Shown here piece after piece: positions 14,955-23,163 of a stretch of 23,163 bases of DNA; position 1 is the stretch's first letter, and each line of letters opens with the position of its first letter. The stretch is from Desulfobacterales bacterium (GTDB lineage Bacteria > Desulfobacterota > Desulfobacteria > Desulfobacterales > YD0425bin50): NCBI GenBank assembly GCA_015228675.1, contig JADGCZ010000052.1, forward strand, positions 1 through 23,163. The letters run 5' to 3'. The notes beneath the pieces are model-generated. The model searched no databases. It saw nothing but the letters and a program-made list of their open reading frames with translations, and had not been told where the DNA came from. The position numbers and the translations under genes were made by a program.

Positions 14955-15236
14955 TTATGAAATGTCCTGATCATATTCTTTAAGTATTTTTTCAGTTTTT
15001 GCTGAGCTTATTTTTTTAATCAGTGTTTGAGCTTCATGTTCATCTCTAAGTGTTTTGGAAAGCGTTATGGATGAGCCAATTAAAAAAATCATACCCATTG
15101 TCATATAGCCTTTAACCCAAAAATCTGTTGGTAAAAAGTAAATGCCGCATAGCATCGCCATCACCGATGCAACAAATGAGAGCTTTACAAATAATATCCA
15201 CGATGCAGAATCTCGTTGAATGCCATAGTTTTCCAT
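14955..15236 (-). CDS. Small two-TM membrane protein, YiaA/B two-helix-domain family
   Basis: SWILFVKLSFVASVMAML ... VKGYMTMGMIFLIGSSITLSKTLRDEHE parallels the YiaAB consensus W-TM...EKGYYF..L.LGLF.A.S.QKTVRD. The start is placed at MENYG (AAGGAG 6 nt upstream). The ORF formally extends to 15278, but those extra 14 codons lie inside the palindromic repeat. Confidence 0.5.
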   Translation of the reverse strand: MENYGIQRDSASWILFVKLSFVASVMAMLCGIYFLPTDFWVKGYMTMGMIFLIGSSITLSKTLRDEHEAQTLIKKISSAKTEKILKEYDQDIS

Positions 15237-15261
15237 GTCTATCTCCTTTTTAGGTATCATT

Positions 15262-15400
15262 TTTTTGGCATTGATCATCGTTTCTGCCAGACATTATTCG
15301 TGCCGTGACAGAATTGTAGGGGCGAACCTTGTGTTCGCCCTCCAAAAGGGCGATGACAAGCATCGCCCCTACATTGTGGCCGAAACGAAGATCAATGCCA
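15262..15400. repeat. MITE-like palindromic element, intact copy: imperfect ~20-bp terminal inverted repeats flanking a double-hairpin core
   Basis: The TIRs are GGCATTGATCATCGTTTC ... GAAACGAAGATCAATGCC. The core is TGTAGGGGCGAACCTTGTGTTCGCCCTCCAAAAGGGCGATGACAAGCATCGCCCCTACA. Hairpin 1 is GGCGAAC/GTTCGCC and hairpin 2 is GGGCGATG/CATCGCCC, enclosed by TGTAGGGG/CCCCTACA. The left ~80 bp recur at 21446-21528 with ~95% identity apart from a 12-bp indel. Confidence 0.65.
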
Positions 15401-15428
15401 TTTTTCTATTGGGTTGGTTACAATAAGT

Positions 15429-19438: not shown

Positions 19439-21094
19439 TTAACTTGTAGATTCAGCTTCAAAAACAGCATTTATAATTTGTTTTGCCTCTTCTTGAATTC
19501 GAGTGAGATGCGATTTGTCTTTAAAACTTTCTGTATAAATTTTATAAACATCTTCAGTTCCAGATGGCCTTGCTGCAAACCAGCCATTTTCTGTAATCAC
19601 CTTTAATCCGCCAATTGAAGCATTATTGCCTTGTGCGTTGGTTATTTTTGCAATAATAGGATCGCCGGCCAATACCCCGCTTTGAATTTGATCAGGAGAT
19701 AATTTTTGAAGCAGTGCTTTTTGTTTAGCATTTGCAGGTGCATCAATCCGCTCATAGATTGGGTCACCGAATTGCTGAGTCAGGTGTTTGTAATGAATAC
19801 CAGGGTCTCTTCCGGTTTTTGCTGTAATTTCAGCCGCAAGTAAATTCATAATAATACCATCTTTATCAGTTGTCCACACCGTTCCATCTTTGCGTAAAAA
19901 TGAAGCACCAGCACTTTCTTCACCGCCAAAACCATAAGCGCTTGAAAGCAAACCATCGACAAACCATTTGAATCCAACAGGAACTTCACATAATTTTCGG
20001 TCTAAATACTGAGCAACACGATCAATCATAGCGCTTGAAACCAATGTTTTACCAATAGCTGCACTTTTAGGCCATTGATTTCGATGTTGAAACAGATAAA
20101 AAATCGCCACAGATAGATAATGATTTGGGTTTAACAAGCCGACACTTGGAGTAACAATTCCATGACGATCTACATCAGGATCATTCCCAAAGGCAATGTC
20201 GAATTGGTCTTTTAAACTAATTAACCCTGCCATTGCATAAGACGAAGAGCAATCCATACGAATTTTTCCATCTTTATCCACTGTCATAAAACCAAATGTT
20301 GGGTCGATGATCGTATTTACAATTTGAAGGTTCAGCTTATATGTATCAGCAATACGGGACCAAAATTCAATAGACGCACCACCTAAAGGATCAACCCCCA
20401 TTTTAAGAGAAGATACCCGAATTGTTTCTATATCAATAACGTTAATTAAGTCATCTACATAAGGCTTTATGTAATCATATTCATGAGTTGTACTTGCCAT
20501 ACACGCTTTTTCAAATGGAATGCGTTTTACTTGGCTATTTTTATTAATTAGATATGTATTTGCTGTTTCCTGAATCCATAAAGTGGTTTTGGTATCTGCA
20601 GGCCCTCCATGCGGTGGATTGTACTTAAATCCACCATCTTCAGGAGGATTATGGGATGGTGTAATCACAATTCCATCAGCAAGACCAGAGGTTTTACCTT
20701 TATTAGCGCATAAAATTGCGTGAGAAATCACAGGAGTAGGCGTGTATTGATGATGTTGATGAATCACAACCTCTACTCCGTTCGCTGCAAGCACTTCCAA
20801 TGCTGTGGCATGACTTGGCTCAGACAATGCATGGGTATCCTTTCCCATAAACAAAGGGCCTGTAATATTTTGACTTTGCCTGTAATCGCATATGGCTTGA
20901 GTTATGGCTAAAATATGGGCTTCATTAAAATTCCATTTAAAAGATGACCCTCTGTGGCCTGAAGTGCCAAATTCAATTCTCTGGCTTAAATCATCAGTAT
21001 CTATCTGTTTAAGAAAATAAGAACTGACCAGTTGCGGAATATTAACAAGCAACGAACGCGGTGCAGGTTTACCTGCAAGTTTATGCACTGCCAT
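19439..21094 (-). CDS. pgm: Phosphoglucomutase, alpha-D-glucose phosphate-specific
   Basis: GTSGHRG near the N-terminus, active-site serine loop [14 protein letters not shown], Mg loop and sugar-binding GGEESAG. 551 aa, the typical Pgm size. Strong AAGGAGG RBS. Confidence 0.9.
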
Positions 21095-21321: not shown

Positions 21322-21462
21322 CTACCGCTTAGGCGGCAACGCTTCTTTAACTACCGCACCATCTTTTTCGCTTAACATCAGCAAAGCAAACTCAGCTACA
21401 GTGTCCAGTTCATCCGTACTTAAACTCGCATAATCAAACGTTCCATTTTTAGCCTTGATCAT
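21322..21462 (-). CDS. Possible 46-aa small ORF whose ATG lies inside the palindromic-repeat TIR
   Basis: MIKAKNGTFDYASLSTDELDTVAEFALLMLSEKDGAVVKEALPPKR. It is below the threshold of the ORF track. The first ~4 codons come from the TTGATCAT repeat end, exactly as for the 15278 start of the YiaAB-like ORF. Confidence 0.15.
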   Translation of the reverse strand: MIKAKNGTFDYASLSTDELDTVAEFALLMLSEKDGAVVKEALPPKR

Positions 21463-21528
21463 CGTTTCGGCCAGACGTGACAGAATTGTAGGGGCGAACC
21501 TTGTGTTCGCCCTCCAAAAGGGCGATGA
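21446..21528. repeat. Left part of a second copy of the MITE-like palindromic element, truncated by group II intron insertion
   Basis: CCTTGATCATCGTTTCGGCCAGACGTGACAGAATTGTAGGGGCGAACCTTGTGTTCGCCCTCCAAAAGGGCGATGA, then the intron GTGCG. The intact copy continues ...GGGCGATGACAAGCATCGCCCCTACA. The break is inside the 5' arm of hairpin 2, 17 nt after hairpin 1. Confidence 0.65.
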
Positions 21529-23163
21529 GTGCGCATGGGAGGGCGATTAATCAGCATGGTGAAAGTCCGTGTCATGGTAAACCACAAACCATGTAGCTGA
21601 AAGTAACTGCGTCGCAGTGATGCGGGGTGGAGAGCAACTGGAAGCGAAGAGACAGTCCGTAGGATAACGAACCTGATTCGGCGTGGTGTTAGCGGCGAGC
21701 CTGCTCATTCATGGCGAAGCCTGAAACTCATTTACCCCGTTGTCGTGGTGCCTGAAACGAGGGTAAAGCACATTGTGTGGTTGGGGACGGAATGTCAGGA
21801 AGATTAAGCGAGATAACCATGGAGACCTGCACATTTAGGTAAGATGTGCAGGAGTCAGAGCCTTCATAGTACCGAACATGATAAGATCATGTAGATGCAT
21901 GAATAGCAAACTCATGCTGAGGGAAGGGAGGTAGGAAAGTTGATACAGGAGGTACAAAGAGATGTTGCTTAAAAAGGAAGCAGTTTCGTCAGTGCAGGAA
22001 AATGCTAAACAAGGAATAGAAACAGAGAAACCATCGAGATGGGGCTTTGTAGAAGCATCGATTTGGACTGAAAGTATGTTGGCGGCTCTGAAAAATGGAG
22101 TTAAAGGAGGCAAATGGTTTAGCTTGATAGACAAGGTATATAGACCACAGACCTTAAACGTAGCTTGGCATCAAGTGGAGGCGAACAAAGGAGCTTCAGG
22201 AGTAGATGGAGTGAGTATCCACTTGTTTAAATCCAAGGAAGAAGAGTATCTCAAAGAATTATCCCAATCACTTCAGGCAGGTACATATAAACCCGAAGCA
22301 ATAAGACGGGTTTATATTCCGAAAGGAGATGGAAAAGTACGCCCATTAGGAATACCAGCGGTAAAGGATCGGATAGTTCAGACGGCAATCAAAATGGTTA
22401 TCGAACCCATATTTGAAAATGAATTTTTGCCAATGAGTTATGGGTTTAGACCAGGTCGAGGATGTAAAGATGCATTAAGAGAAGTAGATCATTTGGTGAA
22501 GAGTGGTTTACACCTGTTATGTGGATGCAGATTTGAAAAGCTATTTTGACAGTATCCCGCATACGAAGTTAATGGAAAAGGTAGAGGAAAAGATTAGTGA
22601 TGGAAGATTATTAGGACTGATCGAAAGTTTTCTAAAACAAGAGATTATGGAGGAATGTAAATGTTGGATACCACCAGCCGGTACGCCTCAAGGAGCAGTG
22701 CTAAGTCCTTTACTTGCTAATCTTTATTTGGATCCATTAGATAAGGTGATAACAGGCTCTGGCTATCGAATGGTACGTTATGCGGATGATTTTGTGATAT
22801 TAAGTAAAACACAAGAAGAAGCTAACGTGGCTCTAACCAAAGTAAAAGAGTGGGTGGTTGCACATGGATTGGAACTTCATCCCGATAAAACCCGAACTGG
22901 AAACTGTATATATGCAGGTGAAGGATTCGAATTTTTAGGCTATCGATTCGAGCAAGGAAGACGTCATGTACGTTGCAAGAGTATGAAAGCGCTAAAAGAC
23001 AAAGTGAGGGAGAAAACGAAAAGGACATGCGGACAGAGTATCAGCAGAGTAATCGAAACGCTGAATCCGACTCTTAGAGGTTGGTTTGAATACTTTAAAC
23101 ATGCACATAAAACAACATTCCCGACAATAGATGGTTTTGTTCGTAGAAGAATGAGAGCTATTC
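21529..23163 (+). mobile_element. Group II intron, 5' portion (compact domains I-III plus intron-encoded protein in domain IV); the 3' end lies beyond the window
   Basis: It begins GTGCGC, the GUGYG 5' consensus. About 433 nt of structured GC-richer RNA precede a reverse-transcriptase ORF at 21962. The RT carries VDADLKSYFDSIPH (RT block 3) and YADDFVIL (block 5, YADD), and the maturase-like region begins near the window end. The short 5' segment fits class C. Confidence 0.8.
21962..23163 (+). pseudogene. Group II intron-encoded reverse transcriptase/maturase, apparently interrupted by a +1 frameshift near 22505-22520
   Basis: Frame 2 reads ...RPGRGCKDALREVDHLVKSGLH and then hits a stop after LLCGCRFEKLF (22549). 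Frame 0, shifted by +1, reads YVDADLKSYFDSIPH...LSPLLANLYL...RYADDFVILSK...LHPDKTRTG... and continues to the window edge. Two frames are therefore needed for the conserved RT blocks. Confidence 0.7.

Follow-up and report, generated by a model that had tools for sequence, protein, structure and literature searches.

A group II intron retroelement beside a DNA hairpin in a REP-type palindrome pair of a Desulfobacterales bacterium, from a lineage that is probably not class C

Near the end of the contig studied here, a palindromic repeat breaks off abruptly, and this raises the questions of what has interrupted it, to which kind of element the insert belongs, and what led it to that position. The window analyzed covers, from end to end, one 23163-nt contig from a Desulfobacterales metagenome-assembled genome (MAG), and the contig end lies inside the insert, within a reverse transcriptase (RT) open reading frame (ORF). 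The features described below are on the forward strand unless noted otherwise. The explanation that we favor is that positions 21529–23163 make up the first two-thirds, counted from the 5′ end, of a bacterial retroelement of the group II intron kind, with an RT and maturase protein, and that its lineage is large, for the most part unannotated, and distinct from the canonical class C (IIC) introns. Taken jointly, as one explanation that includes the mode of insertion proposed below, we regard this as quite probable.

The boundary of the insert was defined by comparing two copies of the repeat. Copy A is intact (15262–15402) and consists of an inverted pair of REP palindromes with outer arms; copy B is represented by its left part (21446–21528), which bears the outer arm GCCTTGATCATCGTTTCGGCCA and is the 5′ exon of the intron. 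The segment 21446–21476 is 90% identical to copy A, and 21476–21528 matches 15304–15356 at 53/53 nt. This identity ends right after ...GGGCGATGA (21528), where the repeat breaks off and copy B continues with GTGCGCATGG, beginning GTGCG. The identical target in copy A, 6 kb away (15356|15357, AGGGCGATGA|CAAGC), is empty and uninvaded. When 21529–21961 was used as an nhmmer query, related loci matched from query position 2 (best E 3e-54), and the homology to about 60 related introns begins at the same base as the repeat interruption. The boundary 21528|21529 is doubly and independently supported, because the identity between the repeat copies stops there and the homology to the relatives starts there. 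The first-pass annotation had placed the intron start, GTGCG, at 21529 and the insertion within a palindromic repeat; the first statement is upheld by the empty site and the onset of homology, and the second by the comparison with the intact copy.

The interrupted repeat has the features of REP/BIME-type palindromes, being short, GC-rich, imperfect, intergenic and repeated, with an inverted pair in copy A; its palindrome type can be written GTAGGGGCGA. The REP-type hairpin of copy B, GTAGGGGCGAAC-CTTGT-GTTCGCCCT, spans 21488–21513, and the GTAGGGGCGAAC motif was found six times in the window against 0.34 matches expected. Three REP-type loci are present (8443–8469, 15315–15373 and 21487–21528), and the one at 8443–8469, found by motif search and given no strand, is a simpler REP-like member, GTAGGGGCGAG-CATGC-CTCGCCCCTAC. 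Regarding a MITE, outer inverted arms exist in copy A (15266–15289 and 15377–15400, 92% complementary), 1.5 copies are visible, and no target-site duplication was identified. Beyond this genome, a degenerate REP pattern matched the hairpin GTAGGGGCGAAC-N5-GTTCGCCCY on at least 120 metagenome contigs, where inverted pairs are frequent, and no intron of the family is present on any of them. For GTTCGCCCTCCAAAAGGGCGATGA, the 24-nt target in its exact form, the JGI metagenomes gave no match. Paralogous genes marked by a common 'ATGATCAA...' at their left ends were also considered and rejected, as the ORFs concerned (107 and 46 aa) share repeat-arm residues only. On the far side of the repeat, the flank expected past the intron 3′ end would read CAAGCATCGCCCCTACA... 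and CAAGCATCGCCCCTACATTGTGGCCGAAACG..., and the sequences GTGCGCATGGGAGGGCG and GAGCCGTGTGCGG may serve as markers for finding further copies in the same MAG.

The ribozyme 5′ segment, with domains I–III and the start of domain IV, occupies 21529–21961, as defined by nhmmer against more than 50 related introns. It deviates at 4/141 highly conserved columns, which is the family median. Rfam model RF02003 gave a weak match at 21552–21667 (27.7 bits, E = 8.7e-4), and no Rfam model matched anywhere in the window at gathering thresholds. The RT start codon (ATG, 21962) lies 433 nt after the beginning of GTGCG and is preceded, 8 nt upstream, by AGGAGG. The contig holds 21529–23163 of the intron; domains V and VI, the 3′ splice site and the 3′ exon are beyond its end, and a search for downstream sequence found no matching contigs for the phosphoglucomutase ORF or a 195-aa RT fragment. 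The relatives end in ...CCCCUAU, bear domains V and VI (RF00029), the latter with a bulged A, and measure 1839–1942 nt, in line with the compact size claimed at first pass.

To learn how the site is chosen, the 5′ exons and introns of 60 independent sites were compared. One alignment column set, the 6-nt EBS1 loop (TCATTC, 21705–21710, in the window), was complementary to exon positions −4 to −1 at 45/60 sites, to −5 to −1 at 42/60 and to −6 to −1 at 28/60, and every other column reached at most 12/60. The corresponding IBS1 of the window is GATGA, the last five nucleotides of the 5′ exon (21524–21528), which forms four Watson–Crick pairs and one G-U pair with UCAUUC. Covariation indicating an EBS2-IBS2 pairing was sought in exon windows from −7 to −31 of the 60 sites, and none rose above 9–12/60. 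The first 3′-exon base (IBS3) is C in 28/31 relatives, which leaves little variation for EBS3 to covary with. Immediately upstream of the insertion is the hairpin TCGCCCT-CCAAA-AGGGCGA (21507–21525), the proposed recognition structure: it is a perfect 7-bp Watson–Crick stem with a 5-nt loop that ends at −4 (DNA fold −8.0 kcal/mol, z = −5.05), and the intron begins 3 nt past the stem end. When intact copy A was folded as single-stranded DNA, one long hairpin was obtained (−47.2 kcal/mol, z = −9.9), with TCGCCCT-CCAAA-AGGGCGA as its apex; the 5′ exon of the interrupted copy alone prefers the REP 1 hairpin (−10.2 vs −8.0 kcal/mol). The arrangement of two successive hairpins described at first pass is, in consequence of these folds, one possible conformation, and the intact element would, as single-stranded DNA, fold into a single long hairpin.

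The same geometry is a property of the family. Perfect hairpins of at least 6 bp ending at −1 to −5 were found at 36/60 independent sites and at 8/284 control positions (Fisher p = 4e-25), a count that refers to perfect Watson–Crick stems, since a looser version allowing G-U pairs and one mismatch failed to discriminate in GC-rich flanks. Moreover, the mean minimum free energy of −30 to −1 was −13.0 kcal/mol at family sites and −6.1 in controls. Across the family, the stem ends about 2–5 nt before the insertion site, and the apical hairpin of the window fits this position. The proposal of a stem-loop-guided insertion, made earlier for this locus, fits the whole lineage, and the comparative geometry suggests that the DNA hairpin may be recognized as a structure. 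Some observations weigh against the favored explanation: EBS1 can pair only if the hairpin partly opens, because IBS1 shares 2–4 nt with the stem's 3′ arm (the last 2 nt in the window); the 5′ exon of the interrupted copy alone prefers another hairpin, as noted; and the identical target 6 kb away has stayed empty. The suggested spread of the intron along a palindromic repeat family was borne out in relatives, where several copies per genome adjoin one REP family (Desulfosarcina alkanivorans, L032/L036/L037; MAG loci L018/L021/L022 and L035/L039/L041). For the window intron itself, searches for a second copy with the repaired RT and its C-terminal 133 aa gave nothing above 69% identity, and a scan of a collection of genome contigs gave 66% at best.

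Two other readings of the target site and of the intron class have to be weighed against this evidence. The hairpin might be incidental, with the intron homing by sequence into REPs through the 6-bp IBS1, IBS3 and protein contacts, so that a palindrome is always nearby. The full-length EBS1-IBS1 pairing, in which EBS1 changes together with the stem's 3′ arm, the copies adjoining one REP family within a genome, and the existence of insertion sequences that also target REPs (PMC1525189) would all agree with this. However, stem sequences are unrelated between the 60 sites and the stem-end distance is nonetheless fixed at about 2–5 nt; nothing in the intron pairs with exon positions −7 to −31; specificity would be very low if six base pairs plus one were all that provided it; and in one MAG the same intron follows different hairpin sequences (L020 differs from L018, L021 and L022). 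We consequently consider an incidental hairpin unlikely. The other reading, proposed at first pass, is a bona fide class C intron beside a stem-loop with a minimal IBS1, as in B.h.I1, GsI-IIC and the attC-associated IIC introns. Like class C (B.h.I1, GsI-IIC, E.r. IIC; PMC1702495, PMC4424553), the family has small introns, no endonuclease (En) domain, no EBS2-IBS2, a stem-loop where IBS2 would lie, right before the site, a single-base IBS3, and insertions in intergenic palindromes rather than genes; in IIC introns, the stem-loop replaces IBS2 (PMC1702495). The best PDB matches of the window RT are also IIC enzymes (7uim and 6ar1, 214 bits; TeI4h 168, LtrA 154), but this weighs little, as RTs of classes D, E and F are absent from the PDB. 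In addition, GUAGGAUAACGAAC of the window resembles, at the sequence level, the IIC epsilon-prime motif, an 11-nt bulge with conserved AGGAA (PMC1702495), for which the class C references read CUGAGGAACACGAAC or CUGACGAACAGAAAC, and may be its counterpart. Against this, domain V of 33/33 readable relatives is 33 nt long with an AGC triad (GAGCCGUGUGCGGGAGAACCGCACGCACGGUUC), and that of the window is expected to be alike from relatives of at most 69% protein identity, whereas in class C the domain V triad is CGC and the distal stem is shorter by 2 bp (PMC1702495), as seen in the references L084–L087 (AACCGCCGUAUACCGAACGGUACGUACGGUGGU-type, CCGCC). EBS1 is 6 nt and covaries over 5–6 positions, compared with an IBS1-EBS1 of 3–4 bp in class C. 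On RF02001, domain I of the family scored about 34 bits (33–35, some relatives barely reaching the gathering cut-off of 32) and the class C references about 140 (136–144), and RF01998 matched the references but not the family. The class C targets are intrinsic terminators with a T-run or attC sites, and the references L085–L087 have ...TTTTTTCTT, with its T-run, before the intron; family sites are REP-like palindromes with no T-run past the hairpin, which ends 2–5 nt before the site and overlaps IBS1. The RT phylogeny suggested by the first-pass annotation, a neighbor-joining tree with few references (one each for D, E, F/g3, g1 and CL; none for A, B, ML, g2, g4, g5, g6, U1 or U2), placed the family (99% bootstrap) outside the class C clade (100%), and the two were grouped in 15–21% of replicates. 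The window RT is 36–39% identical to class C, whose members share 46–65% among themselves, and similarly distant from F/g3 (37%), CL (35%), g1 (34%), E (32.5%) and D (32%). The 433 nt before the ORF stand as a length but not as a sign of class C: the references have about 400–500 nt, a rough value from Rfam match and ORF positions, and F/g3 Ni.ha.I1 has about 490 nt too. The class C reading is largely refuted, and we hold it to be very improbable.

The remaining alternatives concern the RT frame, which the first-pass annotation had described as switching by +1, as is the case. Frame 1 (21962–22508) encodes RT0–RT2, reads ...DHLVKSGLH, and runs on to a stop at 22549; frame 2 (22509–23163) reads YTCYVDADLKSYFDSIPH... 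up to the contig end and encodes RT3–RT7 (YADD) and then domain X, which is cut by that end. The change is located in GGTTTAC (22505–22511), where comparison with the family consensus shows one extra T in the TTT run at 22507–22509. When one T was removed, the sequence REVDHLVKSGYTCYVDADLKSYFDSIPH was obtained, which aligned without gaps to the family consensus REVDrLLKeGyThVVDADLKSYFDtIPH, and the repaired protein matched RVT_1 (1.8e-42), GIIM (1.2e-15) and TIGR04416 (385.6 bits, cut-off 300). The rest of the RT ORF is stop-free and deviates at 6/151 conserved positions (family range 0–9); apart from the frameshift, this copy is undecayed over the part present. Such preservation, the ribozyme deviations at the family median noted above, the position of the surplus base within a homopolymer, and the break of the contig within the intron, a typical sign of collapse in multi-copy repeats, which are more prone to consensus errors, are what one would expect if the frameshift were an assembly or sequencing artefact and the true element coded for an intact RT. 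On the other hand, about 30% of the intron-encoded proteins in complete genomes are reported to be interrupted or incomplete, real frameshifts being common (PMC8919778), and the identical target 6 kb away that is still uninvaded fits an inactive copy. An artefact is a substantial possibility, if not quite an even one. A programmed +1 shift of the ribosome, as a means of regulating RT synthesis, seems extremely improbable: the short U run looks slippery, and frameshifting has been speculated to express some interrupted intron-encoded proteins (PMC8919778), but all of the about 60 relatives examined have one continuous ORF here, with no indel, the position is nowhere conserved as a shift site in the family, and no conserved stimulatory element was seen. 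As assembled, the extra T would truncate the RT after RT2, and, if it is real, this copy would make no RT/maturase of its own and would need the protein in trans. The ORFs of the relatives are 431–472 aa long and their domain V follows about 170 nt past residue ~392, and therefore there is no space for an En domain in them; judging from these relatives, the window protein probably has none either.

Having favored a lineage outside class C, we compared it with other described introns. The class F/g3 intron Ni.ha.I1 (Nitrobacter hamburgensis plasmid 1; PMC3552965) is alike in its domain V (GCGG-5-nt loop-CCGC, 33 nt, AGC), in the RT motifs (K/R)(W/F)(F/Y)xLxDK and VVDADLxxYFDxIPH, in having no En domain, and in ORF and intron sizes. 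It differs in RT sequence (37% identity), in its place within an IS4 transposase gene with no adjacent hairpin, and in its RF02003 score (102 bits vs 27.7 in the window), and it was grouped with the family in 19–36% of bootstraps, as the sole F reference (g3). Class E/F introns have an apparent EBS2-IBS2 pairing (PMC3753933); the family has a class-F-like domain V but no EBS2 signal of this kind. The types g6, U1 and U2 (PMC8919778; g6 also PMC4244168) are reported to lie near class C in the tree of intron-encoded proteins and to follow directly on predicted rho-independent terminators, among them tail-less 'I-shaped' ones (PMC8919778), a placement similar to that of the family after hairpins. 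By comparison with class F, U1 and U2 are described as lacking portions of the RT domain, and segments of the window RT are also shorter than those of Ni.ha.I1. The stated IIC-like RNA of g6 is a difference, as the family is not IIC-like, a comparison with the published descriptions of these types. Published accounts of U1 and U2 yielded no EBS1 length, domain V type or REP association, and the supplementary tables of PMC8919778 and PMC3552965 listed none of the host genera of the family that were checked. The REP/BIME-targeting insertion sequences (ISPpu9, ISPpu10, IS1397, ISPa11; PMC1525189) also insert specifically in palindromes and spread along a repeat family, but they are DNA transposons with transposases and not ribozyme-guided retroelements.

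The favored explanation leads to the following proposed mode of insertion. The lineage would unite a domain V resembling that of IIB/class F and an EBS1 of the full 6 nt with two traits that recall IIC, i.e., no detectable EBS2-IBS2 and insertion 2–5 nt downstream of a GC-rich DNA stem-loop. The excised intron RNA, with its RT, would reverse-splice into single-stranded DNA bearing the extruded palindrome, probably at the replication fork, and the hairpin may stand in for the missing IBS2 contact. For the window, the target would be the inverted pair of REP-type palindromes, with entry 3 nt after TCGCCCT-CCAAA-AGGGCGA, EBS1 UCAUUC pairing with GAUGA, and C expected as the first 3′-exon base. 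Nascent DNA would then prime cDNA synthesis; En-minus introns use replication-fork primers (PMC4424553).

For this genome, the intron copy is genuine and rather ordinary, and annotating it is routine: a single mobile intron, probably multi-copy and possibly inactivated, lies in a REP pair, which would account for the contig break at this spot. The lineage is of wider interest. It comprises more than 8000 proteins at E ≤ 1e-60, in Proteobacteria, Desulfobacterota, Planctomycetota and Acidobacteriota, and we suggest, tentatively and at somewhat less than even confidence, that hairpin-guided insertion, a 6-bp EBS1 and an IIB/class-F-type domain V together define a large, so far uncharacterized group II lineage. 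If so, it would be a structural and functional intermediate between the sequence-homing IIB-like and the hairpin-dependent IIC introns, and stem-loop targeting would not be an invention of IIC alone. According to reviews, the choice of targets by DNA stem-loops is confined to class C introns (PMC4424553, PMC12584367), and a genome survey gave a statistical hint of such a habit for 'g6, U1, U2' types (PMC8919778); the relatives described here show it in a clade that departs from IIC in its ribozyme core and EBS1. If confirmed by experiment, this would offer another, independent system in which to study how DNA shape is read by a ribozyme-protein particle, and it would be relevant to the question of an ancestral or convergent origin of hairpin targeting. 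Together with the need for a hairpin, a 6-bp guide could prove more programmable than the 3–4-bp guide of IIC introns and HYER ribozymes.

The intron boundary was located by comparing two copies of the palindromic repeat, an intact one at 15262-15402 (copy A) and an interrupted one starting at 21446 (copy B). The repeat search showed that 21476-21528 and 15304-15356 are identical in 53/53 nt, and that 21446-21476 shares 90% identity with 15262-15292. Upstream copy A reads on as ...AGGGCGATGA|CAAGCATCGCCCCTACATTGTGGCCGAAACGAAGATCAATGCCA, closing a palindrome of about 140 nt, and the match of downstream copy B to it ends past ...AGGGCGATGA, followed by GTGCGCATGGGAGG. When 21529-21961 was used as an nhmmer query against 80 loci with a related reverse transcriptase (RT), most aligned from query position 2, with E values down to 3e-54. 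The break between the repeat copies and this independent alignment start thus set the intron 5' end at 21529, in agreement with the first-pass annotation, which had read an intron beginning GTGCG inside a palindromic repeat. An empty, uninvaded target site, 15356|15357, was observed within copy A on the same strand, 6 kb upstream of the intron; its 53-nt identity to the occupied site includes the hairpin, the IBS1 GATGA and the IBS3 C (intron binding sites). The window, a whole contig, has a phosphoglucomutase gene (19439-21094) upstream of copy B, and the assembly broke inside the intron, as usually happens with multi-copy elements. In a set of 5.8 billion clustered proteins, the RT and its last 133 residues had no match above 69% identity, and a scan of species-representative genomes gave a best RT identity of only 66%.

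The core hairpin of the repeat, GTAGGGGCGAAC-N5-GTTCGCCCY, was found three times within the window, in related forms. Metagenomes of many environments also contained it, on at least 120 contigs and frequently as inverted pairs, and this recurrence indicated REP/BIME-type behaviour. The exact hairpin GTAGGGGCGAACCTTGTGTTCGCCC(T/C) recurred in at least 120 contigs of many unrelated metagenomes (L089-L168; e.g., L091, L093, L114, L123), again with frequent inverted pairs, and a longer composite unit was present in dozens of copies in metagenome Ga0272440; for a REP, such sequence constancy between environments is unusual. On contig L149 (877-1502), a 69-nt unit with the same hairpin is repeated 9.1 times in tandem with 93% identity; it was rejected as a CRISPR array, as whole units are alike. 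Two minus-strand ORFs, 14955-15278 (107 aa, membrane-protein-like) and 21322-21462 (46 aa), start at an ATG within the repeat's left outer arm (MINAK and MIKAK, respectively); their common start is repeat-derived, so both start codons are questionable, as perhaps is the 46-aa ORF as a whole. Elsewhere in the window, a perfect 18-nt inverted repeat, ACATACCAGCCCAGGGCA / TGCCCTGGGCTGGTATGT, with arms 112 nt apart (8224-8371) and a 22-nt, 91% complementary palindrome inside it (8273-8324), was detected just upstream of a REP-like hairpin at 8443-8469.

The RT ORF, on the plus strand, begins at 21962 and is preceded by 433 nt of intron, as previously annotated, with AGGAGG 8 nt upstream. The annotated frame change was also recovered: the ORF runs in frame 1 to ...VKSGLH, where frame 2 takes over with YTCYVDADL and stays open as far as the contig end, and deletion of one T from GGTTTAC (22505-22511) restored a 400-residue product matching RVT_1, GIIM and TIGR04416, the last with 385.6 bits (cut-off 300). 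The repaired REVDHLVKSGYTCYVDADLKSYFDSIPH gave a gapless alignment with the family consensus REVDrLLKeGyThVVDADLKSYFDtIPH, and the repaired frame had no stop codons. The ribozyme departs from the family at 4 of 141 highly conserved columns (family median 4), and the RT at 6 of 151 conserved protein positions (family median 3, range 0-9). Apart from the frameshift this copy is healthy, so its damage comes down to one surplus T, which either arose by mutation very recently or reflects an erroneous consensus where a repeat was collapsed. Programmed frameshifting, another option in the first-pass annotation, finds no support in the comparison, since every relative has a single continuous ORF across this position. 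The G+C content was 49.7% in the ribozyme segment, 40.3% in its ORF and 36.4% in the rest of the contig (1-21445).

Intron positions in a domain I alignment of 60 non-redundant family members were scored for complementarity to the exon. A single column, the loop GCCUGC-[NNNNNN]-AUGGCGAAGCC, paired with the 5' exon at positions -4 to -1 in 45/60, -5 to -1 in 42/60 and -6 to -1 in 28/60 members. In the window, this EBS1 (exon binding site) loop is TCATTC (21705-21710), and it forms four Watson-Crick pairs and one G-U pair with GATGA (21524-21528). For exon windows from -7 to -31, no partner exceeded 9-12 of the 60 sites, which is background level, indicating that there is no EBS2-IBS2 pairing. 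The first base of the 3' exon is C in 28 of 31 relatives, and also at the window's empty site.

A GC-rich hairpin lies directly upstream at almost every family site. Perfect Watson-Crick hairpins of at least 6 bp ending at -1 to -5 were found at 36 of 60 sites, against 8 of 284 same-locus control positions (p = 4e-25), and the mean fold energy of -30 to -1 was -13.0 kcal/mol at the sites versus -6.1, in line with the earlier suggestion of stem-loop-guided insertion. The stems are unrelated in sequence, with a constant spacing from stem end to insertion site, and IBS1 overlaps the stem by 2-4 nt. The window's matching hairpin, TCGCCCT-CCAAA-AGGGCGA (21507-21525), ends at -4 and is neither of the two hairpins originally described; it is the apex of the long single-stranded-DNA hairpin of the intact repeat (predicted -47.2 kcal/mol, z = -9.9). 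In roughly half of the relatives, the ligated exons showed further pairing across the junction, with clear inverted REP pairs at L012, L070 and L079, so insertion inside a larger palindrome recurs in the family. Moreover, intron copies in multi-copy genomes adjoin copies of one REP family (L032/L036/L037; L018/L021/L022; L035/L039/L041), which supports the proposal that the intron may spread along a repeat family.

Other features were observed at relatives' loci. In a Chlamydiota MAG (L010), a HEARO RNA (RF02033, 85.5 bits; 5401-5635), an IS200/IS605-family guide-RNA element, starts within the last ~17 nt of a related intron's Rfam domain V/VI match (5345-5417), and this overlap suggests insertion beside an IS605-type hairpin end. 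On an Alphaproteobacteria MAG contig (L015), two distinct group II introns follow one another within 4 kb (1404-3282 and 3549-5405), the upstream one of RF02005 (D1D4-6) type (183.8 bits) and the downstream one from the window's family. Downstream of several related introns, tRNA genes lie within 100-3300 nt (L014 5505-5578, L036 8518-8685, L025 5692-5774).

The intron had been labelled class C (IIC). In that class, the distal stem of domain V is 2 bp shorter and CGC replaces AGC, the epsilon-prime bulge has 11 nt including AGGAA, EBS1-IBS1 comprises 3-4 bp, EBS2 is absent, and a terminator stem-loop occupies the would-be IBS2 position (PMC1702495). Our four class C references, with RTs 58-65% identical to the crystallised GsI-IIC RT, have domain V of AACCGCCGUAUACCGAACGGUACGUACGGUGGU type and scored 136-144 bits with Rfam RF02001, versus only 33-35 bits for the window's family; three of the four sit after ...TTTTTTCTT-type tails. 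In all 33 relatives with a readable 3' part, domain V is GAGCCGUGUGCGGGAGAACCGCACGCACGGUUC, 33 nt with an AGC triad, the same architecture as in Ni.ha.I1, the class F/g3 reference from Nitrobacter hamburgensis plasmid 1. With RF02003, the window scored 27.7 bits versus 102 for Ni.ha.I1. Within a reference set covering classes C, D, E, F/g3, g1 and CL, the window RT was 36-39% identical to class C, 37% to Ni.ha.I1, 35% to TeI4h, 34% to the g1, 32.5% to the class E and 32% to the class D reference. Bootstrapped neighbour-joining trees recovered the family (99%) and class C (100%) as monophyletic, and grouped both together in only 15-21%. In addition, family RTs and Ni.ha.I1 have in common, unlike class C, the motifs VVDADLxxYFDxIPH (RT3) and KWFSLIDKV (N-terminal). 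Collectively, domain V, the RF02001 score, RT identity, trees and motifs argue against class C membership, and the lineage appears to lie outside that class.

The pairings, the geometry and the absence of EBS2 are the observed part of the proposed targeting mechanism. In IIC introns, the stem-loop compensates for the absent IBS2 contact (PMC1702495), and En-less introns prime cDNA from nascent strands at replication forks (PMC4424553). Drawing on both, the intron RNP would most likely reverse-splice into single-stranded DNA at the extruded palindrome, guided by 6 + 1 bp from EBS1 and EBS3 and recognising the hairpin by its shape.

Reviews have described stem-loop targets as used by class C only (PMC4424553, PMC12584367). 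Miura et al. 2022 also placed intron-encoded protein types g6, U1 and U2, class C neighbours in their tree, immediately after predicted terminators (PMC8919778). Compared by published description, g6 is reported to have IIC-like RNA (PMC4244168), unlike the family. The RT domain of U1 and U2 is described as missing some parts that class F has, and the segments of the window RT that are shorter than in Ni.ha.I1 fit this. The window intron is thus best filed as a member of an under-described lineage within a known kind of element, not a new category. A domain V of IIB/F type and a 6-bp EBS1, joined to the absence of EBS2 and to a REP hairpin 2-5 nt upstream, make a combination that we did not find in the accessible literature and that merits specialist follow-up.
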